Source: Patescibacteria group bacterium
GTDB lineage: Bacteria; Patescibacteriota; UBA1384; XYA2-FULL-43-10; 1-14-0-10-43-13
Assembly: GCA_041649155.1 (NCBI GenBank)
Contig: JBAZNP010000001.1
Span: 673,183 to 737,182, forward strand
DNA: 64,000 nt
Direction of reading: 5' to 3'
Positions 13,389 to 44,178 of this stretch are shown piece after piece. The translations under genes were made by a program, and so were the position numbers. Within the stretch, counting starts at the first letter, position 1, and every line of letters begins with the position of its first letter. Under the pieces are notes generated by a model. That model made no database searches. It saw nothing but the letters and a program-made list of their open reading frames with translations, and was not told the origin of the DNA.

Positions 13389-13952
13389 ATGAGCAGTGAG
13401 ATAAAAAGACAAATTCAGCAACAAAAGGTTGGCAAGGTAGCTAAAACTGTTATGGAAGGTTTTCTAGAGGGAGTTTATTTTGCTATGGAAACCCTAGGGA
13501 GATTAAATGTTAATAGATATAGCATATATGGTTCTTTAAGAAAAGGAGCTTTTTCTGATTGGAGTGATACACAGCTTTCAATAAAAATAAAAGATGCAGT
13601 TAGAACAGGCTATTTAAAAATTGATTCAAATAATTCTATCGAGTTTACCGATAAAGCCAAGTTGCGAATAGTGGATGTTGTTACTTCTAATAATCTAAAG
13701 GATGGTAAGAATCGTTTTATTTCGTTTGATATTCCTGAAGAAAAAAGGTCTCAGAGAGACGGTTTTAGAAGAACTATTAAAAAAATGGGGTTTAGACAGA
13801 TACAAAAAAGTCTTTGGGTTTGCGACAGGAATATTGGTGATTTTATTGAGATTGCGAAAAAAGAATATGATGTTGAGAAATACGTCGCATACATTGTTTC
13901 GGAAAAATCAGACATCGATGATCACATCAAAACTATTATGAGTATGCGTTAG
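13389..13952 (+). CDS. hypothetical protein with C-terminal Cas2-like/VapD-like motif and a putative N-terminal winged-helix region
   Basis: C-terminal half FISFDIPEEKRSQRDGFRRTIKKMGFRQIQKSLWVC follows the Cas2 pattern (YDIsdd..rR..v.k.l..yG.RvQ.SVFeC). No CRISPR array is present in the window. TATAAT lies 8-13 nt upstream of the ATG (leaderless-type start). Confidence 0.4.
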   Translation: MSSEIKRQIQQQKVGKVAKTVMEGFLEGVYFAMETLGRLNVNRYSIYGSLRKGAFSDWSDTQLSIKIKDAVRTGYLKIDSNNSIEFTDKAKLRIVDVVTSNNLKDGKNRFISFDIPEEKRSQRDGFRRTIKKMGFRQIQKSLWVCDRNIGDFIEIAKKEYDVEKYVAYIVSEKSDIDDHIKTIMSMR

Positions 13953-15353: not shown

Positions 15354-16430
15354 ATGTCTCAATACCTACTTGCACTAAATGCACATGAGAAAATTGGGAG
15401 TCAGACTATCAAAAAAGCTCTGGCTCCTTTTGGTGATAATGCTGAAAAATTGTGGAAAGTAGGGGATAGTGAAATTAGAAAAAAGTTGGATAGTCGGATT
15501 GCAGAATTAATTATTGAAGCGAAAAACCAATTTGATCCTTTGGCTGAAATTAAAAAATTACAAAAACTCAATATTGGTTATATGACAATGTATGATAAAG
15601 AATATCCGAAACTTTTAGCAGAAACGTCGGATGGGCCAGTCGTCTTATATATTCGGGGAGACATTAACGCCTTAAAAGTTCCAAGTATTGGCGTTGTTGG
15701 TAGTCGGAAATTTACCCACTATGGGCAAAAAGTCGCCTATCAATTATCCAAATCTTGTAGTGAGGCCGGTTTGAGTATCGTGTCAGGACTTGCCCTTGGG
15801 ATTGACACAGTGGCTCACAGGGCTGCGCTTGATGTTGGCGGGATTACGGTTGGGGTTTTGGGTTGTGGGCTGGATCGGATTTATCCTGCCAGTAATTTAA
15901 TGCTTGGCAAAGAAATAATCGAAAAAGGCGGGGCGGTTGTTTCGGAATTTCCGCCCGGAACTCCGCCGTTAAAATATAATTTTCCTGCTCGTAATCGAAT
16001 TATTGCCGGATTAACATTGGGTACACTTGTGATTGAAGCGGCCGAACAATCTGGAGCTTTGATAACGGCTTATCAGGCCTTGGAGTATAACCGTGAAGTT
16101 TTTGCTGTACCCGGCAACATTGACTCTGAAACCTCAAAAGGTACAAATTTACTAATTCAAAAAGGAGCAAAAACGGTAACTAAGCCGGAAGATATTTTAG
16201 AGGAATTTAATATTGAGGCGAGAAAAATTGAACAGAAAAATAGGGATTTATTGCCGGAAAATGTCAATGAAAAATTGATTTTTAATATCTTATCTTCGGG
16301 AGAAAAATTGGTCGATATCATTGTGTCTGAAAGTAAGTTAAACATCATAACTGTTAATACTTGTCTGACAATGATGGAGATGAAAGGAATAATCGAAAAT
16401 ATTGGGGGTGGTCGTTATAAATTGCGATGA
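15354..16430 (+). CDS. dprA: DNA processing protein DprA (Smf)
   Basis: GVVGSRKFTHYGQKVA...IVSGLALGIDTVAHRAAL...FPARNRIIAGL: Rossmann-like DprA core motifs. Confidence 0.9.
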   Translation: MSQYLLALNAHEKIGSQTIKKALAPFGDNAEKLWKVGDSEIRKKLDSRIAELIIEAKNQFDPLAEIKKLQKLNIGYMTMYDKEYPKLLAETSDGPVVLYIRGDINALKVPSIGVVGSRKFTHYGQKVAYQLSKSCSEAGLSIVSGLALGIDTVAHRAALDVGGITVGVLGCGLDRIYPASNLMLGKEIIEKGGAVVSEFPPGTPPLKYNFPARNRIIAGLTLGTLVIEAAEQSGALITAYQALEYNREVFAVPGNIDSETSKGTNLLIQKGAKTVTKPEDILEEFNIEARKIEQKNRDLLPENVNEKLIFNILSSGEKLVDIIVSESKLNIITVNTCLTMMEMKGIIENIGGGRYKLR

Positions 16431-16564: not shown

Positions 16565-18745
16565 ATGAATCTTGTAATCGTTGAGTCGCCGGCAAAGGCA
16601 AAAACAATTGAAAAGTATTTGGGCAAAGATTTTAAAGTTTTGGCCTCTTTTGGTCATGTTCGAGATTTGCCACAAAAAAAATTGGGCGTAGATGTTAAAA
16701 AAGATTTTTTGCCGGAATATGAAATTCCAGCTAAAGCAAAAAAGATTATTTCTGAAATCAAGAAAGCTGAGAAGGGCGCCAAAATTCTATATCTCGCAAC
16801 TGACTTGGATCGGGAAGGCGAGGCTATCTCCTGGCATATCCTAAAAGCCTTAAATATTAAGGAAAATGATCAGAACGTTAAAAGAATTGTTTTTAATGAA
16901 ATAACTAAGTCAGCATTGGAAAACGCGGTAAAAAATCCACGTGGTCTTGATATGAATTTAGTTGATGCGCAGCAGGCAAGACGAGTTTTGGATCGGCTGG
17001 TTGGTTATAAGCTTTCTCCATTACTGTGGAGAAAAGTAAAATCTGGCTTGTCGGCAGGTAGGGTTCAATCTGTCGCAGTGCGGCTGGTTGTTGAAAGAGA
17101 AAGAGAGATCGAAGCTTTCAAACCGGAAGAATTCTGGCTTTTGGGCGCAAATTTGTCAAAATTACAAGATGACAAGTTGTTCAAATCATTTTTAACAGAG
17201 ATTGACGGAAAACCGGTTAAAAAATTTGATATAAATAGTAAGGAACTCGCGGATCAAGTAGAAAAAGGTTTGACGGGTGCTGATTACAAAGTATTAAATA
17301 TTTCCAAAAAAGAATCAACGAGAAAGCCATCTGCTCCGTTTACAACTTCTACTTTGCAGATGGAAGCTTCAAGAAAGTTGGGGTATTCAGCAAAACAAAC
17401 AATGATGTTGGCTCAAAAGCTGTATGAAGCGGGACGCATTACCTACATGAGAACTGACTCAACTAATCTTTCTGAAGAGGCGGTTGGTGCAATCAGAAAA
17501 ACCATTAAGAACGAATTTGGCGATAAATATTTACCGGAAGGTGCGCAGAAATATCAAACGAAAACAAAACGCGCTCAAGAGGCTCATGAGGCAATCAGAC
17601 CGTCTCATATTGACCGTAAAGATGCTTCTGAAGATGCTAGAGAGCAAAAACTCTATGAAATGATCTGGAAACGAACCGTGGCATCTCAAATGAAAGAAGC
17701 AATATTTGATATCACTACAGTTTCAATTGAGGCAAATGCCAAACAAAAATTTTTGTTTGTGGCAAAAGGAGAAGGTCTTCGGTTTGATGGTTTTATAAGA
17801 GCATATGTTGAAAGCCAGGATGAAGAAACGGATGAAATTGAAAACAACATTCCAGCTCTTAAAGTTGGTGAAGTATTACAATTTCATAACTTAATTAAAG
17901 AACAAAAATTTACTGAACCGCCAAAGAGATATTCAGAAGCAATGCTGGTTAAAAAACTAGAATCTCTTGGAATTGGGCGTCCATCAACCTATGCTCCAAC
18001 CCTAGCAACAATTCAAGACAGGGGATATGTCGAACTGACTGATAAGAGATTTTTTCCGACAGATATTGCTAAAATTGTAAATGACCTTTTGGTCAAGCAT
18101 TTCTCTAATATTGTTGATTATGAATTTACAGCAAAAATGGAAGATCAGTTTGATGATATTGCTGCAGGAGAGAAAAAATGGGTTCCGGTGATTGAAGAAT
18201 TTTATACGCCTTTTGCCAAAAATCTTTCTGAAAAATCAAAAGAAATTGAGAAGGACGATATTATTAAACCTGAAATGACAGATGAAAAATGTCCTGAATG
18301 CGGAAAACCACTTTTGATTAGACTTGGCCGATATGGTAAATTTATGGCTTGTTCTGGTTATCCGGAGTGTAAATTTTCCAAGCCTCTGGAAGAAAAAGGT
18401 GAGAGCGGGGAAGTGGCCAATAAAAAAGGCGAAATGGAATCAATAGCGGAGGCAACTGCGGAAAAATGTGAAAAATGCGGTGGAAAGATGGTTTTGAAAG
18501 AGGGAAGATTCGGAAAGTTTTTAGCATGCGAGAATTATCCGAAATGTAAAAATACAAAAACAGTTGTTCAATCTTCGGGAATTAAATGTCCGGAATGTGG
18601 AGAAGGGGAGTTAGTTCAGAAGAGGACTAAAAAAGGCAGAATGTTTTGGGGTTGCTCACGATATCCGGGTTGCAAGTATGCCAGTTGGAACGATCCGAAG
18701 CAGGAACGGACAGCGAACAAAACAGACGGCGAAAATGAAAATTAA
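16565..18745 (+). CDS. topA: DNA topoisomerase I with C-terminal zinc ribbons
   Basis: TOPRIM N-terminus MNLVIVESPAKAKTI, active-site region ITYMRTDS, and three CxxC...CxxC ribbons (CPECGKPL...CSGYPEC etc.). Confidence 0.95.
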   Translation: MNLVIVESPAKAKTIEKYLGKDFKVLASFGHVRDLPQKKLGVDVKKDFLPEYEIPAKAKKIISEIKKAEKGAKILYLATDLDREGEAISWHILKALNIKENDQNVKRIVFNEITKSALENAVKNPRGLDMNLVDAQQARRVLDRLVGYKLSPLLWRKVKSGLSAGRVQSVAVRLVVEREREIEAFKPEEFWLLGANLSKLQDDKLFKSFLTEIDGKPVKKFDINSKELADQVEKGLTGADYKVLNISKKESTRKPSAPFTTSTLQMEASRKLGYSAKQTMMLAQKLYEAGRITYMRTDSTNLSEEAVGAIRKTIKNEFGDKYLPEGAQKYQTKTKRAQEAHEAIRPSHIDRKDASEDAREQKLYEMIWKRTVASQMKEAIFDITTVSIEANAKQKFLFVAKGEGLRFDGFIRAYVESQDEETDEIENNIPALKVGEVLQFHNLIKEQKFTEPPKRYSEAMLVKKLESLGIGRPSTYAPTLATIQDRGYVELTDKRFFPTDIAKIVNDLLVKHFSNIVDYEFTAKMEDQFDDIAAGEKKWVPVIEEFYTPFAKNLSEKSKEIEKDDIIKPEMTDEKCPECGKPLLIRLGRYGKFMACSGYPECKFSKPLEEKGESGEVANKKGEMESIAEATAEKCEKCGGKMVLKEGRFGKFLACENYPKCKNTKTVVQSSGIKCPECGEGELVQKRTKKGRMFWGCSRYPGCKYASWNDPKQERTANKTDGENEN

Positions 18746-18799
18746 AGAACCGCCGGCCTACGAGATGTAGACAGGCGGTCAAAGGGTATTTTGTGCCAC

Positions 18800-18973
18800 T
18801 CACTTTAGTAGTGATGCGGCGATTGATGTGAGGAGCATTATGCCTCCAGTAGTGCTCCAGCAATATGCGGCATCTAAGAGAGCTTTGTTGTTGGTGAAAG
18901 TCCACAATGCGCAACCGCATATTCCCATAGCCAATCCGATCAAGAACGAAATCTTTGCTATATCTGAATACAT
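18800..18973 (-). CDS. candidate 57-aa small hydrophobic protein (below the ORF-track length cutoff)
   Basis: Minus strand: RBS aggggg, 6 nt, then ATG; translation MYSDIAKISFLIGLAMGICGCALWTFTNNKALLDAAYCWSTTGGIMLLTSIAASLLK. Lies in a locally GC-richer patch. Speculative. Confidence 0.25.
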   Translation of the reverse strand: MYSDIAKISFLIGLAMGICGCALWTFTNNKALLDAAYCWSTTGGIMLLTSIAASLLK

Positions 18974-19036
18974 ATTTAACCCCCTGGAACAGTCATAACG
19001 TTGTTAACTATACCATATAACTCAATAAAAGTCAAT

Positions 19037-19633
19037 ATGCTACCAAGAAGTGTTCAAAATTTAATTGATGAGTTTGCTAAACTTCCTGGTGTTGGGCCAA
19101 AAACTGCGGCAAGGCTGGTTTTTTATTTGCTTTCCAAACCAAAGCAGGACGTTTCTAACTTGGGAAATGCCGTTTCTGGATTGACTGAGAATTTAAGTTA
19201 TTGCAAAGAATGCTTCAATATTGCCGAATCGGAGTTGTGTCCAATTTGTTCAAGCGAAAAAAGAGATCACTCCATTATTGCTGTTGTGGAGGAACCGCTA
19301 GATGTCATTGCCCTAGAGAAGTCATTATTTTTTAGCGGGGTTTATCATGTTTTAGGTGGGTCTATTTCGCCGATCAATGGTATCGGCCCCGAGGATTTGA
19401 GAATTAATCAACTGATTGAAAGATTAGGCGGTGGTGTTCAGGAAATAATTTTGGCGACTAATCCTGATTTGGAAGGTGAAGCTACGGCATCGTACATAAA
19501 AGACAGGGTACATAATAGTTCTAGCGAAATAAAAATAACTAGAATTGCCAGAGGATTACCTGTCGGTGGCGATTTGGAATATGCCGATGAAGTTACTTTG
19601 AAGCGGTCTTTGGAGGGACGGCGGGAGTACTAG
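19037..19633 (+). CDS. recR: recombination protein RecR
   Basis: LIDEFAKLPGVGPKTAARL (HhH), C4 zinc finger CKECFNIAESELCPICS, and Toprim region. Start set at the ATG matching the RecR N-terminus. Confidence 0.9.
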   Translation: MLPRSVQNLIDEFAKLPGVGPKTAARLVFYLLSKPKQDVSNLGNAVSGLTENLSYCKECFNIAESELCPICSSEKRDHSIIAVVEEPLDVIALEKSLFFSGVYHVLGGSISPINGIGPEDLRINQLIERLGGGVQEIILATNPDLEGEATASYIKDRVHNSSSEIKITRIARGLPVGGDLEYADEVTLKRSLEGRREY

Positions 19634-19944
19634 AAATTACAATGTAATTGTAATTTCTAGATAACAGCTAACAGCTGAACAGATAACAGAAATTAGAAAA
19701 TAATTTTTATGAGTCTTTAAATAACTGTTATCTGTCTGTATTCTGTGATCTGTCAGTTGTCATAATTTGTCATAAAACATTTATAGGACTATATAATTTT
19801 GCCTAAATCTAAATTAGGTGGACAACTTTGTTGACACGAAAAATATTTTATCGATAAAATCCAGTAAGTATCAGCCAAAGGCTGATCGGCCTCTGGCCGA
19901 AAATATAAAAATTAATCGCTGTAAGCGAAAAAAACGAGGGTTAC

Positions 19945-20154
19945 ATGGCAGAAGAATTTGTATGTAGTGAATGCGGTCAGGTGTCGGAAAATGATTATTG
20001 TCCGATTTGTGAGAGCAAAATGGTCAAGCTTGGCGATTTTGACGACATGTCATATGAATCAGATGAAAATGACGAAGATGAAGACGAATTTGACACTATG
20101 AATGGAGATTTTGATGCCGACGATCTAGAGGAGGGTCTGCCAAACTTCGCTTAA
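19945..20154 (+). CDS. small acidic zinc-ribbon protein
   Basis: CSECGQ...CPICES CxxC-x12-CxxC motif followed by a D/E-rich tail. A hairpin terminator follows. Confidence 0.4.
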   Translation: MAEEFVCSECGQVSENDYCPICESKMVKLGDFDDMSYESDENDEDEDEFDTMNGDFDADDLEEGLPNFA

Positions 20155-20170
20155 AAAGATAAAACAAGAT

Positions 20171-20197
20171 CCCGGGAAGTATTAGCTCGGGTTTTTT
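20171..20197 (+). terminator. Rho-independent terminator
   Basis: tcccgggaagtattagctcggg then tttttt. Confidence 0.5.
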
Positions 20198-20263
20198 GTA
20201 TGGGTTATCGAAATTGTAAGATAAATATGATATCCTGAGGCTAAATTAAGATGAGGATTCAAA

Positions 20264-21616
20264 ATGAAACTTTTTAATACAATGGCAAGAGAAAAAGAGG
20301 AATTAATATCAATTGAAGATAAAAAAATACGATTATACACTTGTGGTCCGACTGTCTACGACGCTGTCCATATTGGCAATTTGCGCGCATATGTTGTAAA
20401 CGATTTATTAAAACGAACTTTAACTGAAAACGGATACAATGTTACTCATGTCATAAATATCACAGATGTTGATGACAAAACCATAAGGCGATCTGAAGGA
20501 AAAAAAGCTGCCTTTGAAAAACTTGTGAAAAAGTATGAAGAAAAGTTTTGGTCTGACATGGATGAGCTGAATAATCTGCGACCAACTAACGTAACTCGAG
20601 CGACTCAGTATATTGATAAAATAGTTTCTTTTATTGAAGATTTGGTAAAAAAAAGTTTTGCCTATAAGTCTTCAGACGGATCAGTTTATTTTTCAATAGA
20701 AAAATTTAAAGATTATGGAAAATTATCCCGACTTGATAAGAGCGGTATAAAATCGGGAGCGAGAGTTTCTCAGGATGAATACGACAAACAAAATCCAAGC
20801 GATTTTGCGTTGTGGAAAGCGTGGACAGAAGAAGATGGTGAAATTTACTGGGAAACAAGTTTGGGAAAAGGGAGACCTGGCTGGTCGATTGAATGTTCGG
20901 CAATGTCAATGGATGTGTTGGGAGAAACTTTAGATATTCATACTGGAGGAGTCGACTTGATTTTTCCTCACCATGAAAATGAAATTGCCCAGTCAGAAGC
21001 AAAAACAGGTAAAAAATTTGTGAACTACTGGGTTCACAACGAGCATTTATTGGTCGACAATACTAAAATGGCGAAAAGTCTGGGAAATTTTTTTACATTA
21101 GATGATATAAAGCAGAAGGGTTTTTCTTCATTGGATTTCCGCTATTTGGTCTTGGGCGCTCACTATCGATCGAAATTAAATTTCACTTGGAAATCTTTAA
21201 CTGCTGCCAAGAATTCACGTGAGCGACTTAATAATATTGTCGATAATTTTAAAGATGGGTCAAATGGCAATATCGATAAAAAATATTATGATGATTTTAT
21301 AGAAGAAATATCTGACGATATAGATGTACCTGGTGCCTTAGCTGTTTTGTGGAACATGCTTCGCGACGAGAACATTGGTCGGGCGGATAAGTATAAAACA
21401 GCACTTTTAATGGACAAAGTTTTTGGCTTAGACCTTGGCCAAATAAAAGAAGAGAATATTCCTCAGGAAATCACAAAACTTGCAGAAGAGCGAAAAGGAG
21501 CTAAGGCTAATAAAGATTTTCAGTTAGCGGATGAAATTCGAGAGAAAATCAAACAAGAGGGATGGTCGATTGAGGATCTGGAAAATAATGAATATAAATT
21601 AGCAAAAAGCCTCTAA
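20264..21616 (+). CDS. cysS: cysteinyl-tRNA synthetase
   Basis: YTCGPTVYDAVHIGNLRAYV (HIGH-region), KMAKSLGN, and C-terminal DALR-like region. Confidence 0.95.
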   Translation: MKLFNTMAREKEELISIEDKKIRLYTCGPTVYDAVHIGNLRAYVVNDLLKRTLTENGYNVTHVINITDVDDKTIRRSEGKKAAFEKLVKKYEEKFWSDMDELNNLRPTNVTRATQYIDKIVSFIEDLVKKSFAYKSSDGSVYFSIEKFKDYGKLSRLDKSGIKSGARVSQDEYDKQNPSDFALWKAWTEEDGEIYWETSLGKGRPGWSIECSAMSMDVLGETLDIHTGGVDLIFPHHENEIAQSEAKTGKKFVNYWVHNEHLLVDNTKMAKSLGNFFTLDDIKQKGFSSLDFRYLVLGAHYRSKLNFTWKSLTAAKNSRERLNNIVDNFKDGSNGNIDKKYYDDFIEEISDDIDVPGALAVLWNMLRDENIGRADKYKTALLMDKVFGLDLGQIKEENIPQEITKLAEERKGAKANKDFQLADEIREKIKQEGWSIEDLENNEYKLAKSL

Positions 21617-21730
21617 GGATAAAAAAGTGGACGGACACAAATGATGCGCCGTCCGAGTAAAGAGGGTGGGAAGGTCTGATTTTTTTAGCTAATAAATCAA
21701 CCAAATGGATTTTAACCCAATATAATAAAT

Positions 21731-22744
21731 ATGTCAATATCTGATAAATCGTTTTGGCGAGAAGTCAAGCGTCCAATTAAAGTTCTCGCACCAATGGCCG
21801 GATACACCGACTCAGCTTTTCGCATAATTTGCCGGCAATTTGGTGCTGACGTTGTAATGACTGAGCTTGTTTCGGCAGATGCGATTGCTTTTAGTAAATT
21901 TAAAGTCGAAAAAAGTGATGGCAAAACTAAAGCAATCTCGACTAAAAATAAAACTACAGCTGAAATGTTGTCTTTTTCTGACGAGGAACGACCTTTGGTT
22001 ATCCAGCTTTTTGGTAAGTATCCGGAAAAATTTGCTTTGGCTGCCAAATGGATTTCGGATAATTTAAAGCCTGATGGGATTGATATTAATATGGGTTGTC
22101 CTGCTAGAAAGGTGGTTGGCAGCGATCACGGTGCTGCACTATTGAAAAATCCTGATCTTGCTTGTGAAATCGTTCGAGCAGTTAAAGAAAATACGAACCT
22201 GCCAATCTCGGTTAAAACCAGACTTGGTTGGGACTCCGATGATCAAATTCTGGAATTTGGACCAAAAATGATATCAGCGGGGGCAGAGGTTCTAATTATT
22301 CATGGTCGGACTTATAAACACGGTTTTTCCGGCGAGGCACGTTGGGAAAATATTTATAAATTAAAAGAAATAGTCGGGGACAATATTGTAATTGGAAACG
22401 GCGATATTAAGAGCATCTTTGATCTTGAACGCCGCATAAACGGCGTTATTGACGGCCGGAATATTACGCTCGACGGAGCAGCAATTGGCAGGGCAACTTT
22501 TGGAAAACCATGGATATTCACTCAGAATACAGATAACAGAATACAGATAACAGCTTTGAAAAAAACTATTTTAGACCATGCAAGATTAGCTTTTGAAGAC
22601 AAGGGGGATAAAGGAATAATTGAATTCAGAAAGCACTTGCTTGCATATTTAAAAGGTTTTCCAGGCTCGAAAGCTTTACGCATTGTAGCGACTAAGATTG
22701 AGAATTTAAATGACATCGAACAAATTTTGTCCCATATTGTATAA
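21731..22744 (+). CDS. tRNA-dihydrouridine synthase
   Basis: LAPMAGYTDSAFRIICRQFGADVVMTELVSA...INMGCPARKVV: Dus family TIM-barrel motifs. Confidence 0.9.
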   Translation: MSISDKSFWREVKRPIKVLAPMAGYTDSAFRIICRQFGADVVMTELVSADAIAFSKFKVEKSDGKTKAISTKNKTTAEMLSFSDEERPLVIQLFGKYPEKFALAAKWISDNLKPDGIDINMGCPARKVVGSDHGAALLKNPDLACEIVRAVKENTNLPISVKTRLGWDSDDQILEFGPKMISAGAEVLIIHGRTYKHGFSGEARWENIYKLKEIVGDNIVIGNGDIKSIFDLERRINGVIDGRNITLDGAAIGRATFGKPWIFTQNTDNRIQITALKKTILDHARLAFEDKGDKGIIEFRKHLLAYLKGFPGSKALRIVATKIENLNDIEQILSHIV

Positions 22745-22751
22745 ATAATGC

Positions 22752-22791
22752 GTTATGCTAAATATCGTCGATCGTGAATTTTCAGCATAAC
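22752..22791. repeat. hairpin repeat R3
   Basis: gttatgctaaatatcgtcgatcgtgaattttcagcataac has a perfect 8-bp inverted repeat around the conserved core. Starts 8 nt after the dus stop. Confidence 0.6.
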
Positions 22792-23341
22792 AATTGGGTA
22801 AGTTAGCTCTCAAATTGGTCTACTCGATACTGCTCATTGTTAGAATGGGGTGGTTTTTTTAATTTTGATATTGACAAAAATTTATAAATGTGATAAAGTA
22901 TGCAGTCGGTTAGTTAAAGCTAACTGGGCAAGCAATTTGAAAATTTTAAATTGAAAACTGGCTGGGATCTGGGGAAATTATGAGTGGCGGTTTTATTCGG
23001 TTGGTCGGCATTGTTGACCCCTTAAAAAATGTGGGTCTGGCCACGCCAACTTCCGACCACTTCTCACCCTTTTCTTGGCTAGTTTTCAACTTAAAATTAG
23101 AAGATTTTACAATAATCTTTGTTGGCAATAGTCAAAATTGTATGAAAGATTAGCGTAAAGGTTTTGATAAAAAAATAAAATGGTTTAGCGGGAGATGTAG
23201 TGATTTAAATCATTCATTTCTCGCTAAAGTAAAAAAATACTTTAGTGAGTTATATAAATGACCCATGGACACAGTGCCTCCCGATCCATGGGTGGCACTT
23301 TGATATAAAACGAATCAAAACGAAAAAATACATAGGAGGCT

Positions 23342-24355
23342 ATGATGAAAAGATTTGGATTCGTAATTATAGTTGTAATGATGTTATCACTCGTTCCGAC
23401 GTTTGTCGGAGCACAGGTTGGTGCTGTTGTTGCAACAAACGGCAACGGCTTTGGCTGGTATGCTGGTGGGGAGTTCATCACGAACACCACAACGGCAAGG
23501 GCGACTGCAGTTCTCGGCATCGATCAGATGTACGAGGACTCATTCTCGTACGGTTGGCGCAACAACGCCGATGCTAAGGTCATCGATGTTGTAACTGGAC
23601 TTTTCAATGCATGTCCCACGGCTTATGCCGGGCCATTCACGACCGGTCCAGATGGACAACTGCTCAAACTCTCTGGAGTCTGGGTGTCAAACTTTCCGCT
23701 TAATTCAGCGGTAAAGAAAGTACCAGAAGGGTGTTTTTTAATTCAACTTGATTGTAATCCTTGTGGCGGCTTAACTGGTTCGTTTACTCCCCCATGTGGA
23801 TGCGCTAAAGGCGAATTGTTCTTTTACGGTCAAGTAGAGGCTGGAAAGAGAACGGTTTATGGAATTAAGATACCAGTCATTTCTTGGTTTTTCCCGAACG
23901 CTTTTGATTGGACAAAGAGGTCTGATTTATTTCAGCCGCTTGGAGTAGTTCCATACAACCTTGTTCGATGGGTGGGCGACAAGCCCTCTAATGCGACAGA
24001 GTTGGCTGATGTAATGATCAACCAGTTGGGTTCAGGTGGATCGTCTCCGGATATCATGGCGATGAGGGCTAATCACGCTATGGAAGAGGGTATGTTAAGG
24101 TCGACAAATGGCTTTAAGATAGCTCTCATGTCAGCAGACGGAACTCCGTTTACAGGAACGCTTAACTTTCGACTGAAGTCAATGTTTGACAACAGCGAAT
24201 ACACTCCCAGCCAGCTTTTTAGAGGACCAGTGTTAAGCTTTGGTCCGACGACTCCTGGTAAATATCAACTTTCCCTTTGGTGGGGAGCTGGTAAAACGAA
24301 GTCTTGGGATGTCGCTGTTGCGAATGACACTGTTATACCGATTCAATTGCCGTAA
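23342..24355 (+). CDS. secreted hypothetical protein (Cys-containing) in a GC-rich island
   Basis: Signal peptide MMKRFGFVIIVVMMLSLVPTFVGAQ and RBS aggagg. Local GC is visibly higher than the flanks. Confidence 0.5.
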   Translation: MMKRFGFVIIVVMMLSLVPTFVGAQVGAVVATNGNGFGWYAGGEFITNTTTARATAVLGIDQMYEDSFSYGWRNNADAKVIDVVTGLFNACPTAYAGPFTTGPDGQLLKLSGVWVSNFPLNSAVKKVPEGCFLIQLDCNPCGGLTGSFTPPCGCAKGELFFYGQVEAGKRTVYGIKIPVISWFFPNAFDWTKRSDLFQPLGVVPYNLVRWVGDKPSNATELADVMINQLGSGGSSPDIMAMRANHAMEEGMLRSTNGFKIALMSADGTPFTGTLNFRLKSMFDNSEYTPSQLFRGPVLSFGPTTPGKYQLSLWWGAGKTKSWDVAVANDTVIPIQLP

Positions 24356-24367
24356 GGAGGATGGGCA

Positions 24368-25036
24368 ATGCGAAAAATAGTGATTCTATGTTTAATGATG
24401 TTTCTTTTGCCAACCATAGCATTGGCAGCTATTGATTTGTCAAAGAAGGAATGGTATCCATGGCCGGTTTCGGCTCAAAAATATCGTCCTGCATTAGGGC
24501 CAAGAACATTGCAGGTGAATGTTCCTCCAGGTTATCTGACAAGTGTTGCGCGTTGGAACGGCGGTCGAGTAAAAAATGTCGAAGGATATAATAGCAAATA
24601 TGCACCTTCGATTGTTGACATTGTCAGCGAAACGGCCACTTATTGGACAGTTAATCCCAGAAGGCTACTGGTTTGTGGAAATCCAGAAACAGGGAGGTGC
24701 TTCAACGTTATGAAGCCTTGCCCACCGCCATGTCCAACGGTATCAAAACCGCCATGTGAACCGCCATGTCCACCTTTACCACCACCTTGTGCCATAATTG
24801 GTACAGCAGAAGGATCATGCGCAGTGTATACGAGAGGAGAGTCACAGTATTCTCCGACCACACCTCGAGAAAGCGTTGATAATGGTGGTTGGTCAATACC
24901 ATTCGGAGTATTCGGCTATAAGCCGAATGAAACGACAATTACTCAATCTCCAGATTGCCATTTGACGCCTGAACAGGCGGCGGCAATTGTTAAGCCGACT
25001 ATTGGGCAGGTAACTAATGGTGTTATCTTGTATTAA
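24368..25036 (+). CDS. secreted hypothetical protein with Cys/Pro-rich segment
   Basis: Signal peptide MRKIVILCLMMFLLPTIALAA, and CPPPCPTVSKPPCEPPCPPLPPPC. RBS aaggagg. Confidence 0.5.
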   Translation: MRKIVILCLMMFLLPTIALAAIDLSKKEWYPWPVSAQKYRPALGPRTLQVNVPPGYLTSVARWNGGRVKNVEGYNSKYAPSIVDIVSETATYWTVNPRRLLVCGNPETGRCFNVMKPCPPPCPTVSKPPCEPPCPPLPPPCAIIGTAEGSCAVYTRGESQYSPTTPRESVDNGGWSIPFGVFGYKPNETTITQSPDCHLTPEQAAAIVKPTIGQVTNGVILY

Positions 25037-25238
25037 TACTTGATGACACAATGAAAACCAGCGAATGCTGGTATCTGCGGGAGTGGCGCTAAAGCGCCAC
25101 TCCCGACATTCTTCCAAATCAATAATAATTATTTATTGATTTAGATAGAGTGATATTGAATAAAGTGATTAATTGAGGTATAAGAAAGCGTTAGTCAATA
25201 ATATTAACAAGCTTTCTTGTTATAATCGAAAGGAAAAA

Positions 25239-26411
25239 ATGAAAGTAATTAAGAGTTTCTTGGAGAATTTCAAAAAACTGTTTTGTATAACAGTTATTTT
25301 GTCGTTCTTTTTATCAATGTTCCTGCCTTCTCTGACGCAAGCTTCAGAAGGGCCTCATTTTGCGGCAGAATTGCCACTATTTGAGGGTGCTAACATAACA
25401 AAAAACCAACAGGGTTATTCTGACCCTGTAACGGGAGATCCTGGTGACAACATCGCTGGTCTGATCTACATTCACAATGATGTTAAAGGCACGACCGCGA
25501 CTAATTCCAAGGTAAAAGTAGATCTTCCATCTACGACTACTAATAAATCAGCTGTTCTAAAAGAGACGTTATCCGCTGATAATGCAGCTTCTATCTCAGA
25601 CACATTAACAGCAAATCTTAGCGCCGATGCTAACATTAATTATGTTGCTGGAAGTGCAAAATTTTACCATGTAGTAAACAACCAATCGGTTGAGATTCCT
25701 TTTCCAAATGGTGATGGGAACAATTTGACCACCACAGGCGTAAATCTTGGAAACCTACAAGGTTGTACCGAATTTATCTATTTTATTTCATTCATTTTCA
25801 AAACTACTCCAAAAGATGTTCCAGCTGCTAACTTTACAGTTGCAAAAACTGTGAGAAATATTTCTTGCGGTGAAAGTAATTTCGTTAAAAGCAATTATGC
25901 TAATCCTGGTGAGACTTTGGAATATAAGATTGATTTCCAAAATACTGGAAAAGCTGCCGCGGACATCTTTGTTGTAGATAAAATTCCTGCAAAAACCACT
26001 TTTGTTCCTGGTTCTGTTGTATTGGTTAGAAACGGTAAAGAAGAAAAATTAAGTGATGCTTTTGTCGGCGAGGGAGTATCTATCTCAAACGTTACTGCTG
26101 GTGAAAAAGGTACTATTAAGTTTAAAGTAAAAGTTAATGCTGACGCGAAAGACAAGGAAGTGCTTGTTAATACTGTAACTTTGTATTTTAATAAGATTTC
26201 AATCTGTGATACTGCTCAGACTACAGTTAAAGTTGCTGTAACTCCTACACCTCCAGTTCCAACTACTCCGGCTCTTCCTGTTTCTGGTCCAGTTGAAACT
26301 GCCAGCGCATTGGTTTCTTTGTCTGGAATGGGTATCTTCGGTTTTATGAGGTATCGAAAGTTTATGGCTCTTAAAGAAACTAAGATTATTGGCGAGCTAC
26401 TTAGCAAATAA
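25239..26411 (+). CDS. cell-surface protein with signal peptide and LPXTG-like (LPVSG) C-terminal sorting signal
   Basis: N-terminal signal MKVIKSFLENFKKLFCITVILSFFLSMFLPSLTQA. C-terminus PALPVSGPVETASALVSLSGMGIFGFMRYRKF (motif, hydrophobic stretch, basic tail). TATAAT lies 12 nt upstream of the ATG. Confidence 0.5.
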   Translation: MKVIKSFLENFKKLFCITVILSFFLSMFLPSLTQASEGPHFAAELPLFEGANITKNQQGYSDPVTGDPGDNIAGLIYIHNDVKGTTATNSKVKVDLPSTTTNKSAVLKETLSADNAASISDTLTANLSADANINYVAGSAKFYHVVNNQSVEIPFPNGDGNNLTTTGVNLGNLQGCTEFIYFISFIFKTTPKDVPAANFTVAKTVRNISCGESNFVKSNYANPGETLEYKIDFQNTGKAAADIFVVDKIPAKTTFVPGSVVLVRNGKEEKLSDAFVGEGVSISNVTAGEKGTIKFKVKVNADAKDKEVLVNTVTLYFNKISICDTAQTTVKVAVTPTPPVPTTPALPVSGPVETASALVSLSGMGIFGFMRYRKFMALKETKIIGELLSK

Positions 26412-26583
26412 GTAAATCTGTTGTCAGTAAATCAGTTATACAAAATTCCTCCGATGTAATGTTGGGGGAATTTTGTATATAGAATATCAAATACGAATTT
26501 GATACAATCAGGAGGAGAGGCTGCGGAACTCGCTTTGCTCTAACAGTCCTCGCCAATAAAACAAACAAGGCAAATAAATAACC

Positions 26584-27606
26584 ATGGATGCAAAACAACG
26601 TCTCTCTGAATTGAGACAAATTCTAAAAATTGACGAGAAAAGAGCGAAAGCTAAGGAAATTGAAGAAGAAATGAATTCTCCTGAATTTTGGCTTGATGAA
26701 AAAATGGCTCAGCAGAAATCGAAAGAAATTAAAGTCTTGAAAGAAGAAATTAAAAAATTTGATGATATAAATGAAATTGCTGAAATTGCAACTGAAGACG
26801 AAGAAGACTTCATTAAAAAAGAAATTGATAAGCTTGAAATTTACGCTCTTTTTAAAGGCAAATATGATATTAAAAACGCAATCATAAATTTCTATGCCGG
26901 TGCTGGTGGAGTGGACGCTCAAGATTGGACAGAAATGCTACTTCGGATGTATCTGAAGTGGGCGGAGAGCAATGAAGCGACTGCTGTTATTTTAAATGAA
27001 TCAAGAGGCGGGGAAGCAGGAATAAAGAGTGCAACGGTGGAAATTTCCGGTTCATATATTTTTGGTAAGTTAAGAGGTGAAAATGGGGTTCATAGGCTTG
27101 TTAGGCAGTCTCCTTTCAATGCAAAAAGCTTAAGGCAAACTTCCTTTGCATTGGTCGAAGTAATGCCGGAGATTGAGACAGACACTGAAATAGGCATTGA
27201 CGCCAAGGATATTAGAGTTGATACATTTCATTCCAGTGGTGCCGGCGGTCAATCTGTTAATACGACCAATTCGGCAATCCGCATAAAGCATTTACCAACT
27301 GGCATTATTGTTTCCTGTCAAAATGAAAGAAGCCAGCTGCAAAATAAGGAAATGGCAATGAAAATTTTAAGGTCCAGATTAGCTCAATTGATGCTTGATC
27401 AGCATAAAGAAAAAGTCGAGGAAATTCGGGGTGACTTTTCTGCACCGGAATGGGGCAACCAAATCAGATCTTACGTGTTGCATCCATATAAACAAGTAAA
27501 AGATCATCGTACGAACTATGAATCAAAAGATCCCGATAAAGTACTTTTGGGCGATCTAAATGGTTTTATTGAAGCGGAACTAAAACAAGTGGAAGGTAGG
27601 GAGTAG
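26584..27606 (+). CDS. prfB: peptide chain release factor 2 (single ORF, no programmed frameshift)
   Basis: SPF tripeptide (RQSPFNAKS) and GGQ (HSSGAGGQSVN). The N-terminus aligns past the position of the classical +1 frameshift site. Confidence 0.85.
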   Translation: MDAKQRLSELRQILKIDEKRAKAKEIEEEMNSPEFWLDEKMAQQKSKEIKVLKEEIKKFDDINEIAEIATEDEEDFIKKEIDKLEIYALFKGKYDIKNAIINFYAGAGGVDAQDWTEMLLRMYLKWAESNEATAVILNESRGGEAGIKSATVEISGSYIFGKLRGENGVHRLVRQSPFNAKSLRQTSFALVEVMPEIETDTEIGIDAKDIRVDTFHSSGAGGQSVNTTNSAIRIKHLPTGIIVSCQNERSQLQNKEMAMKILRSRLAQLMLDQHKEKVEEIRGDFSAPEWGNQIRSYVLHPYKQVKDHRTNYESKDPDKVLLGDLNGFIEAELKQVEGRE

Positions 27607-27646
27607 AAGGCGGAAAGAAGAGGGTAGAAAATGAAAAGGAGGGGAA

Positions 27647-28402
27647 ATGCAATTGCCGAAAATTAATGTTGATTGGGGTAAAGTGGGGGATTTGAATATC
27701 CAGAATTTTGATTTTCATTCTCCTTTTGGGAAGCTAATCTTATTGATTTCCGCTATATTATTGCTTTCTTTTGTAACAAATTACCTTTTATCTAGGTCAA
27801 TATTTGGTAGGGGCTACCGGATTTTTGTTGCCCCTGGTGTTATTGTCCACGAATTTTCGCATGCTCTAATGTGTCTTGTAACCGGAGCAAAAATTTCCAA
27901 AATGTCACTCTTTGATAAAGAGGGCGGTAAAGTTGAACATACGTCTCCTAAAATACCGATTATCGGCCAGATTGTTATCTCTTTGGCCCCGATATTTTTT
28001 GGAGCGGTTGTAATATATTTCTTATCAAGAAGATTGGGAATAAATAGTGTGGATTTTGCTACTATCCATTTAACCAAAGAAGGGATAGCGGAACTTTTTA
28101 AATCAGTGTTCTCTAATCTCAATTTTCGGATTGCCAGCACTTGGATAATTCTTTATCTAGTCTTGTCTATCACTGCTACTTTAACACCAAGCTTTCAGGA
28201 TTTGAGAAACATTGTAGCCTCGCTTGGTTTTATTGGAATAATAATATTTTTGGTTTATAGATTTTCCGCATTTCGTTTTAATTTTAATCTGTTGGCACCG
28301 GATCAAATTGTTGTTTTATTGTCGACTGTATCTTTGTTATTGATTTTGGGCCTCATATTAAGTATCATACTTTATATTACATCTAAGCTAATAAGCAGAT
28401 AA
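27647..28402 (+). CDS. putative membrane zinc metallopeptidase (M50B-like, HExxH)
   Basis: Polytopic membrane protein with VHEFSHALMCLVTGAKI in a TM helix. Family assignment is tentative. Confidence 0.4.
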   Translation: MQLPKINVDWGKVGDLNIQNFDFHSPFGKLILLISAILLLSFVTNYLLSRSIFGRGYRIFVAPGVIVHEFSHALMCLVTGAKISKMSLFDKEGGKVEHTSPKIPIIGQIVISLAPIFFGAVVIYFLSRRLGINSVDFATIHLTKEGIAELFKSVFSNLNFRIASTWIILYLVLSITATLTPSFQDLRNIVASLGFIGIIIFLVYRFSAFRFNFNLLAPDQIVVLLSTVSLLLILGLILSIILYITSKLISR

Positions 28403-28416
28403 GTAAAAGGAGAATT

Positions 28417-28722
28417 ATGGTAGATTTTTCAAAAGCGCGTGAATTGTATGATTTACAAAAAAAAGCAAGAAAAATTCAAAAAGAATTAAAAGACACAGAA
28501 ATTGAAGCAAAAAGCAATGACGGTTGGGTTAAGGTTGTGTTTAATGGTGAACAACATTTAACTGATATCGATATTGCCGAAGAAGCATTGAAAGTTGAAA
28601 ATAAGAGAGAGCTAGAAAAGGATTTAAAAAACACTATTTCTCAGGCAATTGCCAGAGCTCAAGCTCATGCAGCAGAGAAAATGAAAGAAATTGCTGGAAA
28701 TCTCAATATTCCAGGGATGTGA
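28417..28722 (+). CDS. ybaB: nucleoid-associated protein YbaB/EbfC
   Basis: About 100 aa, with K/E-rich N-terminus, core GWVKVVFNGEQHLTDIDI and C-terminal helix, typical of YbaB. Confidence 0.8.
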   Translation: MVDFSKARELYDLQKKARKIQKELKDTEIEAKSNDGWVKVVFNGEQHLTDIDIAEEALKVENKRELEKDLKNTISQAIARAQAHAAEKMKEIAGNLNIPGM

Positions 28723-28799
28723 GAAAACAACAGATTACTAATTATACAAATAATACAGATTATACAAATTAAGAATATTATAAAGAGTAAAGAAGCGAG

Positions 28800-29423
28800 A
28801 TGAAAATTATTGTTGGCTTGGGAAATCCGGGGGAAAAATATGAAGGCACGCGTCACAATGCGGGTTTTATGTTTGTTGATGCCTTGTCTGAATGTGAGGC
28901 TGTAAAGCCGGTTGATAGCAAAGTGGTTTTTAATTTTGATAAAAAGTTTGAAGCGGAAGTTGCTACTGTTAATTATAAAGCCGAGAAAATCATATTGGTA
29001 AAACCTCAAACTTTCATGAATTTATCAGGCAGAGCAGTTTCTAAAATTCTTTCTTTTTATAAGGCGTCGCCAGAAGATTTGATTGTGATAAATGATGATA
29101 TTGATTTGCCAATTGGTACTATTCGAATTAGAAAAGAGGGTTCAGGTGGAGGGCAAAAAGGGCTTGAAAACATTATTTCTGAATTGAAAACCGACAATTT
29201 TACCAGAATCAGAGTTGGTATATCTAGTTCTGGCGAGAAAGTAAATCAAATTGAAACGGTCAATTATGTTTTGGGTAAGATCGACAAGAGAGAACTTCCA
29301 ATAATCCAAAAAGCAATATCGCAGGGTATTAATTATATCTTGGAATTCATTGGCACTAATAATGAGATCCCTTGCCATACTATTGAAGTTGTCGGCAAGG
29401 AAGAGGGACCGAGTAAGGTCTAG
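28800..29423 (+). CDS. pth: peptidyl-tRNA hydrolase
   Basis: MKIIVGLGNPGEKYEGTRHNAGFMFVDAL is the canonical Pth N-terminus. Confidence 0.95.
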   Translation: MKIIVGLGNPGEKYEGTRHNAGFMFVDALSECEAVKPVDSKVVFNFDKKFEAEVATVNYKAEKIILVKPQTFMNLSGRAVSKILSFYKASPEDLIVINDDIDLPIGTIRIRKEGSGGGQKGLENIISELKTDNFTRIRVGISSSGEKVNQIETVNYVLGKIDKRELPIIQKAISQGINYILEFIGTNNEIPCHTIEVVGKEEGPSKV

Positions 29424-33966: not shown

Positions 33967-33995
33967 TTGACAAATAAAATTTGGTATGCTATAAT
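33967..33995 (+). promoter_or_regulatory. near-consensus sigma70 promoter (TTGACA-N17-tgcTATAAT) driving a 400-nt structured leader/ncRNA and the downstream module
   Basis: ttgaca, 17 nt, tataat, with extended -10 TG. Followed by about 400 nt of GC-elevated sequence full of short hairpins before the first ATG at 34403. Confidence 0.6.
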
Positions 33996-34402
33996 CCAAT
34001 GTTCTTAAGGTGAGGGGATTCACAGCGAGAACCCAGTTACCTCAAGAAAATACATTACAATTTAGTGCGATAGTGTGCTGCATAATTCATTTCTTGGCCT
34101 CGTGCCAAGACGTAGGTTCCCCCTCCGCCTGCGGAATTATGTGGCACAGTATTGCACTTTTTTTAAACCTTTGGTTTAAAACCCAGCGTAGCTTTAGCGA
34201 AGTTGGGTAGATGCAATTGCATTTTGACAACTAAATATCCTTCAGAGCAAGTTGCGCTCCGTGCAACTAGTAGAAAGTGAAAGGCGGTAAGTAGAAAGTT
34301 TTACGCCCAGCTTGCTCTGAGGGAATAACACCCTCAAAAGGGCCGCCAAAACGGCGTTTAATTACGCCGCTTACGCGGCACTACATTTGGAGGGATCGTA
34401 GA

Positions 34403-35068
34403 ATGAGAACACTTGTAACTTTGGTCGTTATTATAACGACGCTGTTTCTTTTCTCGCCTAATTCCTACTGCGCCATTGGCGTTGTAGTGGAAGACGGTAA
34501 CGGACCTGTCGCACAGGGTCAGGAAGCTCAAACTAGTATTCAGGAATCTCCTCAAGATAGTGGTGAGCAGGTTGCACAAATGCCAGCTGAGGAACGGGTT
34601 GAAGAGATGGGGACCTTAGTTGACTCTCAAGTTTCGTGTGTCAATTCTGATATTTCGAAATTTAGAGAAGCTCGAGCTAATCTGGCTCGAAGGAATGAGA
34701 GTGTAGCAGTCCACGTTCTTGAACGGAAGGTTGCCAGTCTTCAGTCGAGACTGAGAATATTTAAATCTATGAAGGTTGAAATAAAAGATCTTCGTGAGAG
34801 AATGTTCACTCTCGATGACAAGAAAGATATTGAGGCGCTCAAGAAGCTCGTTGATTCATGGACGAGCAAGTTCGTTGATGATGAGGAATTCACAAAAAAG
34901 CTCCAATCTTATGTCACAAAAGAAGACTTGGAGCAGCAGTTGTCTTCTTATGCCACTAAAACAGAAGTGAATCACATCGGAAATCGAGCGAGAAATTCTT
35001 ATGTGCTTTCATGGTTAGCAATTGTGGGAGTGATTCTTCCTCCGATTTACAAGAAAGTGCGTGGGTAG
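34403..35068 (+). CDS. hypothetical secreted/membrane protein with coiled-coil region
   Basis: Signal-like N-terminus MRTLVTLVVIITTLFLFSPNSYCA, central heptad-like charged region, C-terminal TM YVLSWLAIVGVILPPIY. Confidence 0.45.
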   Translation: MRTLVTLVVIITTLFLFSPNSYCAIGVVVEDGNGPVAQGQEAQTSIQESPQDSGEQVAQMPAEERVEEMGTLVDSQVSCVNSDISKFREARANLARRNESVAVHVLERKVASLQSRLRIFKSMKVEIKDLRERMFTLDDKKDIEALKKLVDSWTSKFVDDEEFTKKLQSYVTKEDLEQQLSSYATKTEVNHIGNRARNSYVLSWLAIVGVILPPIYKKVRG

Positions 35069-43501: not shown

Positions 43502-43562
43502 ATAGTTAATAAATGATAGTCTAATGATAGTCTATAGTTAATGGACTTCATAGAAAAAATCG

Positions 43563-43596
43563 CCTGTTATTTCAAAGGCGGTTTTTTAATTAAAAA
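43563..43596 (+). terminator. Rho-independent terminator
   Basis: aaaaaatcgcctgttatttcaaaggcggtttttt. Confidence 0.55.
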
Positions 43597-44177: not shown

Positions 44178-44178
44178 A

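Follow-up and report, generated by a model that had tools for sequence, protein, structure and literature searches.

Among the closest described counterparts of the locus reported here is the C. difficile S-layer cassette (slpA-secA2-cwp2-cwp66), which occurs in 12 types and forms a fixed-position block of secreted surface proteins that is far more variable than its flanks, is exchanged between lineages by homologous recombination and is thought to owe its variation to selection at the cell surface (PMC5270738). We describe a similarly arranged locus in a Patescibacteria group bacterium (assembly GCA_041649155.1, contig JBAZNP010000001.1, positions 673,183 to 737,182 of the forward strand; this 64-kb stretch is hereafter 'the window', and coordinates count from its first nucleotide), in which a structured RNA (the rod RNA) and two genes for predicted secreted proteins (g1 = ORF1, g2 = ORF2) lie between dus and a gene for a DUF11-repeat protein with a sorting signal (O3 = ORF3), which is followed by prfB. 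It shares with the C. difficile cassette the fixed position, the variability and the exchange between lineages named above (selection at the cell surface being likewise presumed), and differs from it in the lack of any sequence or domain relation (no CWB2), in its size (only about 1.65 kb and two genes), in a left border that lies inside a gene (at the signal-peptide end), in a lasting GC excess and in a conserved RNA leader. We think it probable, with some reservation, that it represents the variable core of an ancestral surface-protein locus of fixed position, where a cassette with a structured leader is exchanged by homologous recombination. Host recognition and surface make-up of the ultra-small Patescibacteria (candidate phyla radiation, CPR) are largely obscure, and almost none of them has been cultured; the locus offers a concrete candidate, i.e. 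a recombination-exchanged pair of secreted proteins at a fixed address beside a wall-anchored protein, lineage-wide and with alleles that move between species.

Several other systems invite comparison. In E. coli, the mRNA of the envelope protein gene ompA carries a stabilising stem-loop in its 5' untranslated region (UTR). A 5' UTR stem-loop also stabilises the slpA mRNA of Lactobacillus (PMC10221546 for slpA), and the present locus resembles both in that a long stable hairpin precedes, in the predicted 5' leader, the coding sequence of exported envelope proteins; it differs in that its rod comprises 155 nt and five helices with invariant loops, shows covariation across family-level divergence and belongs to no Rfam family. 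Unlike sortase-dependent pilus and adhesin loci (BcpA, SpaA, RrgB; FCT-type), g1 and g2 have no LPXTG signal, whole-chain template-modelling (TM) scores lie below 0.2, and no sortase was found at the locus or among the genes of the 64 kb that were scanned or have recorded Pfam matches (most, not all, open reading frames (ORFs) of at least 150 amino acids (aa); this scope holds for all window-wide domain negatives below). Collagen-like surface proteins (Scl1/Scl2, BclA) are similar in combining a variable globular part with a proline-rich rod, and g2 of one related locus (L012) has GXY repeats; in contrast, the window g2 has none, and head and stalk would here be two polypeptides. With a classical genomic island the locus has in common a locally deviant base composition and a content that differs between close relatives, whereas mobility genes, a tRNA target and border repeats are lacking, slot and regulatory RNA are ancestral, and the exchange would be a homologous replacement within the lineage.

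Gene order and cassette exchange

A scan of release factor 2 (RF2, one genome per species) placed the organism in the Patescibacteria, the nearest species representatives (labelled Berkelbacteria or Saccharibacteria) being 63-71% identical in this protein. The order cysS-dus-(RNA)-(GC-rich signal-peptide pair)-DUF11/LPXTG-prfB-M50B-ybaB-pth was recovered in 5/5 species representatives covering the region and in about 25 further metagenome loci (every one with downstream sequence), and extends in relatives with readable context to recR-cysS-dus-(ORF1-ORF2)-DUF11 gene-prfB-M50B-ybaB-pth-L1-L10-L12-tgt. In each of the five representatives the slot is occupied by two genes on the plus strand that encode signal peptides, are much richer in GC and have no tblastn similarity to the window pair; conversely, every relative of ORF1 or ORF2 with readable genomic context sits in this same slot (the context was not readable for four remote matches, P0007-P0010). 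No tRNA or transfer-messenger RNA (tmRNA) was detected by ARAGORN in the 64 kb, no direct or inverted border repeats flank the cassette, and no integrase or mobility genes occur at the slot, whose neighbours are dus and the DUF11 gene. The window contains no second copy of any cassette segment that could act as a silent donor or as the template of a diversity-generating retroelement (DGR), nor was a reverse-transcriptase domain found among its scanned genes, so that the locus does not have the make-up of a DGR target. The RNA search pattern described below had 0 matches in viral contigs, and literature searches returned nothing relevant on either the locus or the RNA. These comparisons establish an ancestral, fixed-position and lineage-wide module composed of an RNA and two secreted-protein genes.

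Within this constant setting we observed that the interior of the slot is replaced. One related locus (L108) is collinear with the window over 17000-29274 at 81-88% nucleotide identity, except for 23416-25079, where a forced global alignment reaches 28-46% identity and the g2 tail (GQ..GVIL) is the only recognisable part. The left junction (23415) is the last signal-peptide codon (...FVGAQ) and the right one (25080) lies at the hairpin following g2; correspondingly, the protein identity between both loci amounts to 91-92% for O3, about 20% for g1 and 32% for g2. In a second pair (L012 and L095) O3 is 97% identical with a synonymous divergence (dS) of 0.24, and next to it g1 (65%) and g2 (42%) have saturated synonymous sites (proportion of synonymous differences, pS, 0.79-0.83), from which it follows that the alleles are much older than their flanks. 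The window-type g1 recurs in L003 (90%), L004 (72%, cysS 63%) and L008 (46%), and the L108-type g1 occupies the same slot in L121 (76%) and L123 (57%), two loci whose cysS and dus are 60-64% and whose O3 is 45% identical to those of L108 (62%, 64% and 45%, respectively, for L121). As judged from these alignments, allele types cut across the phylogeny of the flanks and g1 is between lineages at least as similar as the housekeeping genes; this incongruence, taken with the g1 similarity, points to horizontal replacement within the lineage. Conserved flanks, an unalignable interior and incongruent alleles, the hallmarks of a recombination-exchanged surface cassette, are all present, and at the level of sequence the replacement has defined junctions. 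We conclude that the mature parts of g1 and g2 are exchanged as a unit by homologous recombination (with leader and signal peptide as the conserved left arm, and the g2 tail and hairpin as the right one), and that old, very divergent alleles persist and move between lineages. The coordinates of all features are collected in Table 1.

Table 1. Features of the locus on the window (coordinates of related loci are given where these are named)
Feature	Position	Strand	Description
Sigma-70-type promoter	22871-22899	+	TTGACA-17-(TG)TAAAGT; best match in 22600-26700 (10/12, extended -10); predicted function
7-bp hairpin	22907-22926	+	CGGTTAG-TTAAAG-CTAACTG; at the predicted transcript's 5' end; conserved within the clade of the window
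Rod RNA	22944-23101	+	rod-shaped RNA of about 155 nt whose 5 helices contain 51 base pairs; the internal loops lie on the 5' side; apical loop UUAAAAAAUGU
3' leader part	23102-23341	+	reaches down to the ribosome-binding site AGGAGG (23334-23339)
g1 (ORF1)	23342-24355	+	predicted secreted 337-aa protein; signal peptide 23342-23415; beta-rich mature part with C-terminal CnaB/transthyretin-like sandwich (model)
Exchangeable GC-rich cassette (mature g1 + g2)	23416-25079	+	unalignable with L108 between conserved flanks
g2 (ORF2)	24368-25036	+	predicted secreted 222-aa Pro/Cys-rich protein; conserved C-terminal tail GQVTNGVILY
Cys/Pro tract (hinge-like)	24719-24790	+	CPPPCPTVSKPPCEPPCPPLPPPC; ORF2 residues 118-141; lies on a 36-nt tandem duplication
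Post-g2 hairpin	25078-25105	+	13-bp GC-rich inverted repeat (I5), 100% complementary; right cassette border
O3 (ORF3)	25239-26411	+	DUF11-repeat surface protein; LPVSG sorting signal 26274-26288; adjoins the cassette, not part of it
Promoter, purine motif and terminator-like hairpin upstream of the rod	L011 6180-6265; L012 6045-6125; L015 5520-5590; L102; L110; L090		

Base composition

The overall GC content of the window is 37.3%, and in comparison to the 39 other long ORFs (37.0 +/- 2.5%) both ORF1 (46.8%, z 4.0) and ORF2 (45.3%, z 3.3) are GC-rich. The 400-nt and 1700-nt GC maxima of the whole 64 kb fall at these two genes, with 23.4-25.05 kb (47% vs a background of 37%) as the most GC-rich stretch. 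The rise is limited to the mature-protein parts of ORF1 and ORF2 (23416-24355, 47.7%; 24428-24990, 47.2%; 23416-24990 as a whole, 47.1%), and GC is only 32-37% in the spacers, the leader, the two segments coding for signal peptides and the final 15 codons of ORF2. ORF3 is ordinary in composition (GC 37.7%; GC at third codon positions, GC3, 0.28; z about 0), and the anomaly therefore comprises two genes, not three. When the excess was partitioned against the codon usage of the other ORFs of the window, that of ORF2 was found to be due entirely to the amino acids encoded (Pro 14%, Cys 4.5%; Lys, Glu and Asp scarce), with native synonymous codon usage; the +9.9 points of ORF1 divide into +6.1 for composition (Gly, Pro, Trp and Cys up; Lys, Glu and Ile down) and +3.8 for synonymous sites (about 60% and 40%), the latter driven by an enrichment in NCG codons (GC3 0.44 vs 0.34 expected, z 3). 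Translational selection was rejected as the cause of the high GC3 in ORF1, on account of this NCG enrichment and of the L7/L12 gene, which has the lowest GC3 in the window (0.19).

The excess is not peculiar to the window. In a set of 20 distinct loci, cassette GC lies +5 to +21 points (median +14) above that of the remaining locus and follows the host GC loosely only (r 0.51). In relatives the synonymous share of the excess is as large as the compositional one (GC3 up to 0.78 vs 0.39). In L011, for instance, the pair has 58% and 62% GC (the dus and DUF11 genes at its flanks having about 44%), and in L016 57% and 66% (vs 41-45% in the flanks). The GC excess belongs to the cassette in every lineage, and the locus offers a clean natural case for asking what keeps the GC of a vertically fixed slot 5-21 points higher than that of the surrounding genome. 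Candidate causes would be biased gene conversion at a recombination hotspot (a process proposed for bacteria; PMC4450053) or selection on mRNA or protein composition: the coincidence of the GC-rich with the exchanged segments fits the former, and the latter would likewise raise all three codon positions.

These results recast the initial annotation, in which the stretch had been read as a GC-rich island of three genes and as a candidate for a horizontally acquired cassette inserted between dus and prfB. The raised GC stood for ORF1 and ORF2 and fell away for ORF3; windowed GC and codon usage, proposed there as a check, located the maximum at ORF1-ORF2 (+10 points) and a deviant GC3 in ORF1 alone, with native synonymous usage in ORF2 and ORF3. 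Insertion had to be abandoned, as a GC-rich signal-peptide pair occupies the syntenic position in all relatives examined, an observation that the annotation itself had named as refuting. Of the acquisition there remains an exchange of slot content among relatives (as seen in L108 and in the incongruent alleles), not a foreign insertion; an outside donor of the cassette appears unlikely because no homologue with readable context was traced outside the slot. As a lesson for annotation, a GC-rich patch of orphan genes is not necessarily foreign.

Elsewhere in the window, a GC rise that is purely compositional (GC2 0.475, native GC3) was noted in another large putative surface protein (55848-61472, minus strand; 1874 aa), which has weak matches to fn3, Big_13 and a purple-acid-phosphatase N-domain.

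Putative leader RNA and predicted transcript

The spacer between dus and ORF1 (600 nt) is 79% identical in nucleotides to that of L004, as compared to protein identities of 71% for dus and 63% for cysS, and harbors the rod. An RNAalifold analysis of 8 sequences revealed compensatory changes at 22/51 pairs; with 30 distinct sequences, 95.3% of the cells are paired, double changes occur at 34/51 pairs, and the covariation score of 0.571 compares with values of at most 0.167 for slid partners and was reached in 0/500 shuffles. The window copy alone folds alike (-59.4 kcal/mol, z -4.95), and the plus strand is fixed by invariant G-U pairs. The leader thus possesses a conserved, covariation-supported secondary structure. 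A covariance model recovered an untrained copy in L016 (87 bits, E 3e-16) directly upstream of the GC-rich pair of that locus, where an extra gene lies between dus and the rod; the RNA therefore travels with the pair and not with dus. A pattern scan of metagenome contigs yielded 29 more rod loci, all of which were scored by the model (80-162 bits). Rfam 15, searched up to E 10, gave no match at gathering score in the window (best sub-threshold E 2.6 or weaker): the rod is a previously undescribed RNA outside all Rfam families, with covariation support that is unusually strong. Identity with 6S RNA, signal recognition particle RNA, RNase P RNA or tmRNA was rejected, since no model matched and the characteristic motifs were absent by eye; 14 nt of the rod (22954-22967) are complementary to ORF1 (24205-24218), which was judged to be due to chance.

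The promoter lies 45 nt upstream of the rod and is aligned and conserved in L003, L004/L117, L008 and L108. Downstream of the rod, the 3' leader is 86-89% identical to that of L108 and 79% to that of L004 (the neighbouring cysS and dus proteins reach 63-71%), no terminator separates the rod from ORF1 in the window, and the rod-to-g1 spacer measures 70-106 nt in 14 relatives (70 to 430 nt over all loci). With a conserved promoter upstream, no intervening terminator and short spacers, the rod would fall between transcription start and start codon of the predicted transcript. The hairpin after g2 is kept in L108 with a compensatory change, and in 16/18 relatives a hairpin without a U-tract (-14 to -29 kcal/mol) is found no more than 67 nt from the g2 stop; the window hairpin probably represents the 3' end or a stabiliser of the operon. 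We infer that leader, g1 and g2 would be co-transcribed, as a transcript of about 2.2 kb running from the promoter to this hairpin, and that ORF3 would be transcribed separately. By analogy with slpA leaders, the rod most likely acts in cis, as a 5' element stabilising or controlling the g1-g2 mRNA. A pairing of an anti-Shine-Dalgarno CCUCC (23282-23286) with the ribosome-binding site of ORF1 was dropped, as it is not conserved in L008 or L117.

Variation around the unit was noted at both ends. The hairpins after g2 differ in sequence and are followed in many loci by a YCCRAAG-like motif (window 25106-25125, ...TTCCAAATC), which may be a lineage-specific terminator or processing signal. In most other clades the promoter reads TTGACA-17-TAGACT or TAGAAT and precedes a purine motif (GGAUGGGG or GGAAAGGGG), then a small hairpin with a U-run that resembles an intrinsic terminator, the U-run being at once the 5' strand of the basal helix in the rod; this element could be an attenuator, and the window's clade has the plain 7-bp hairpin in its place. 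A second long structured leader before a surface-protein gene may exist at 33967-34402, where a near-perfect promoter (TTGACA-17-TGCTATAAT, 33967-33995, plus strand) is followed by about 400 nt without an ORF (GC 46-47%), for which Rfam returned nothing, and by an ORF (34403-35068) of 221 aa with a signal peptide, a C-terminal membrane anchor and a raised GC3 (0.40).

Secreted proteins and their neighbour

Both genes of the pair begin with typical Sec signal peptides (MMKRFGFVIIVVMMLSLVPTFVGA|Q in ORF1 and MRKIVILCLMMFLLPTIALA|A in ORF2) behind strong ribosome-binding sites (AGGAGG, 23334-23339; AAGGAGG, 24354-24360), the second of which overlaps the g1 stop codon. The Cys/Pro tract of ORF2 is underlain by a 36-nt tandem duplication (repeat D1, 24715-24786), and its CPPPC...PPPC pattern resembles an antibody-type hinge. 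ORF1 has four relatives among 5.8 billion proteins and eight matches in a full hidden Markov model search of 1.84 billion representatives, and ORF2 has two relatives among the 5.8 billion. Pfam and NCBIfam gave nothing above family cut-off for either, and in ten positional counterparts of g1/g2 Pfam gave nothing above cut-off except for a Collagen domain in the g2 of L012 (E 1e-16, true GXY repeats); the window ORF2 itself has no Pfam match and does not qualify as collagen-like (Gly-X-Y runs, PF01391). All relatives have a g2 with 8-20% Pro, and many have Cys-Pro or poly-Pro tracts and a PDHG motif. The window g2 shares a CGNP motif and the C-terminal half with L005, and the N-terminal half with L003 and L009. 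Across all loci g1 forms clusters of 16 and 8 members plus singletons and g2 clusters of 10, 9 and 3, the sharing between loci being mosaic at the domain level. Inside allele types dN/dS is 0.08-0.23 (0.23 for the window g2), showing that g1 and g2 are real genes under purifying selection within their type.

In a predicted model of ORF1 (8-sequence alignment), the N-terminal part is beta-rich and is followed by two helices and by a sandwich at the C-terminus that is modelled with confidence (residues about 257-334); Foldseek returned low-TM matches to multi-Ig surface proteins, and a library of viral folds no match above TM 0.23. Several g1 proteins have long central helical or coiled-coil-like inserts. 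On this basis g1 and g2 would either build an extracellular fibre or stalk or decorate one, next to the DUF11 protein, itself presumably sortase-anchored, with g2 as an extended Pro/Cys-rich protein that may be hinge-like in the window and, in some relatives, similar to collagen.

For ORF3 the most likely start codon is ATG 25239 (giving 390 aa), which public gene calls use and homologues match, rather than TTG 25173. The protein has an N-terminal signal peptide (MKVIKSFLENFKKLFCITVILSFFLSMFLPSLTQA, judged by eye) and ends with a sorting signal (LPVSG, 20 hydrophobic residues and RYRKF), beyond whose basic tail runs an unusual extension of 15 residues. Its orthologues end with LPVTG, LPITG, LPQTG, LPKTG or LPRTG, likewise followed by a hydrophobic segment and a basic tail, and where two O3 paralogues occur the anchoring signal is found on the second only. 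Matches were obtained to TIGR01451 (50.3 bits, cut-off 24) and PF24595 (DUF7619; 36.2 bits, cut-off 27), with PF01345 just under its cut-off (22.9 vs 24.6 bits). The orthologues are syntenic in all relatives, and on sequence grounds ORF3 is an ancestral neighbour with native GC.

As regards these products, the initial annotation largely held: the signal peptides, the strong ribosome-binding sites and the CPPPC...PPPC tract were all recovered, the signal peptides support secreted or surface proteins, and the tail of ORF3 proved to be a genuine sortase-type signal, its orthologues ending in LPx[TS]G. The homologue search that it had called for gave a divided answer, with few relatives for ORF1 and ORF2 and syntenic orthologues of ORF3 in all relatives.

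A separate observation concerns the N-terminal half of O3, which has no nucleotide homology between the window (25242-25673) and L003 (2479-2907; 65% protein identity overall), despite an RF2 that is 98% identical between the two; the O3 of L108 is, for comparison, 91-92% identical to that of the window. This is a second replacement near the slot, independent of the first.

Alternative explanations

Taken together, these observations are best read as a hypervariable module for the cell surface or for attachment, headed by a structured 5' leader, and as a candidate determinant of cell-surface specificity. Both signal peptides, the consistently Pro-rich g2, the collagen of L012, the helical inserts of g1 and the conserved LPXTG neighbour support a surface or fibre role, and, by analogy with the C. 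difficile S-layer cassette, the variation may reflect diversifying selection at the cell surface (host attachment, or phage or host-defence pressure). A number of points weigh against this reading. The function of g1 and g2 is read from signal peptides, composition and a model of moderate confidence (predicted local distance difference test, pLDDT, 69; predicted TM score, pTM, 0.48), in which only the C-terminal 80 residues match anything; the AlphaFold2 model of ORF2 (3 sequences, pLDDT 32) is unusable, neither protein has a recognisable wall-anchoring motif, and homology across all g1 and g2 clusters is transitive only and partly weak. Regarding the RNA, 29/37 copies come from the pattern search, which prescribes parts of helices 1-2 and so inflates the conservation there (helices 3-5 and the apical loop are unaffected), and no expression platform (i.e. 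a conserved, mutually exclusive structure) was found in the window. Furthermore, the loop nucleotides of the rod are invariant (including UAAA..A in the apical loop), which together with covariation across family-level divergence suggests a specific partner more than a mere stabiliser. Lastly, O3 also recombines (as in L003) yet has native GC, which disfavours recombination alone as the cause of the GC excess.

Recent arrival of a genomic island from an unrelated donor of higher GC, inserted between dus and prfB, would account for the GC of 47% vs 37%, for the GC3 of ORF1 (0.44 vs 0.30, z 4) with its NCG codons and for the near absence of homologues of ORF1 and ORF2; we regard it as highly improbable, given that all relatives, down to an RF2 identity of 63%, possess the slot, the RNA and a GC-rich pair, that ORF2 is native in its synonymous usage and ORF3 ancestral, that tRNA, integrase and border repeats are missing, that no homologue was traced outside the slot (the context of P0007-P0010 excepted), and that viral contigs gave no match. 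At the other extreme, the excess might be a by-product of fast-evolving, vertically inherited secreted proteins rich in Pro, Gly, Ala and Cys, with the apparent swaps reflecting extreme divergence. Amino-acid composition does explain all of the ORF2 excess and about 60% of that of ORF1, and g2 has 8-20% Pro everywhere; however, the synonymous part equals the compositional one in relatives (GC3 up to 0.78 vs 0.39), the divergence has sharp borders with saturated synonymous sites beside flanks of dS 0.24, and allele types are incongruent with flanks between lineages whose g1 is at least as similar as cysS and dus, all of which renders this explanation improbable. Two further alternatives concern the parts rather than the whole, and we hold both to be rather unlikely. 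That the rod represents a small RNA gene of its own (acting in trans or within a ribonucleoprotein) and not the g1-g2 leader would suit its invariant loops, the promoter and terminator-like hairpin with U-run just upstream in several relatives and the variable distance to g1 (70 to 430 nt); against it stand the missing terminator between rod and g1 in the window, the merely 70-106 nt to the start codon in 14 loci, the conservation of the 3' leader, and a strand and order that always match those of the pair, with which the rod of L016 stays instead of with dus. That g1 and g2 are subunits of an S-layer-like lattice (i.e. abundant envelope proteins, with a leader for mRNA stability as in slpA) would be in keeping with the long structured leader, the strong 3' hairpin and ribosome-binding sites, weak structural matches to SlaB, HPI and SbsB, and a cassette-type exchange as in C. 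difficile slpA (PMC5270738, PMC10221546); yet Pfam and NCBIfam scans found no S-layer or wall-binding domain (SLH, CWB2), the structural matches have low TM or high root-mean-square deviation, and a Pro-rich or collagen-like g2 suggests a stalk and not a lattice.

Beyond the exchanged module with a structured leader that we favour, a more far-reaching version can be proposed only tentatively. In it the rod would be a new class of RNA serving an exchanged host-attachment cassette of CPR episymbionts, bound by a protein or processed, which controls or localises the mRNA and forms, with the signal-peptide codons, a conserved 'handle' for replacement; the lasting GC excess (GC3 up to 0.78 in genomes of 0.39) would then be a footprint of GC-biased conversion, marking intense recombination at a single locus. 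If true, this would amount to a population-level system of surface variation of a kind not described for Patescibacteria.

Further features of the window

In the vicinity of the slot, prfB (26584-27606) is a single uninterrupted ORF across the region of the programmed +1 frameshift that is present in many bacteria, and no CTT TGA site is visible upstream. In L121 a gene without a window counterpart (15576-15935; 119 aa), of the bAvd / 23S-rRNA-IVP family, which includes DGR accessory proteins, lies between ybaB and pth. A protein of 187 aa encoded at 13389-13952 carries a PaaX central / Cas2-like domain (E 4e-16), and among the window genes scanned neither a CRISPR array nor another cas gene was found. 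Moreover, three or four type IV pilin-like genes with the N-terminal methylation motif (447-2291 and 4235-4843) and a run of genes for large ATPases (DUF8128, TraG/TrwB and VirB4 (DUF87) types) next to a sigma-70-r4/HARE-HTH protein (40964-48393) represent, as judged from their motifs and domains, other envelope or DNA-transfer functions in the window.

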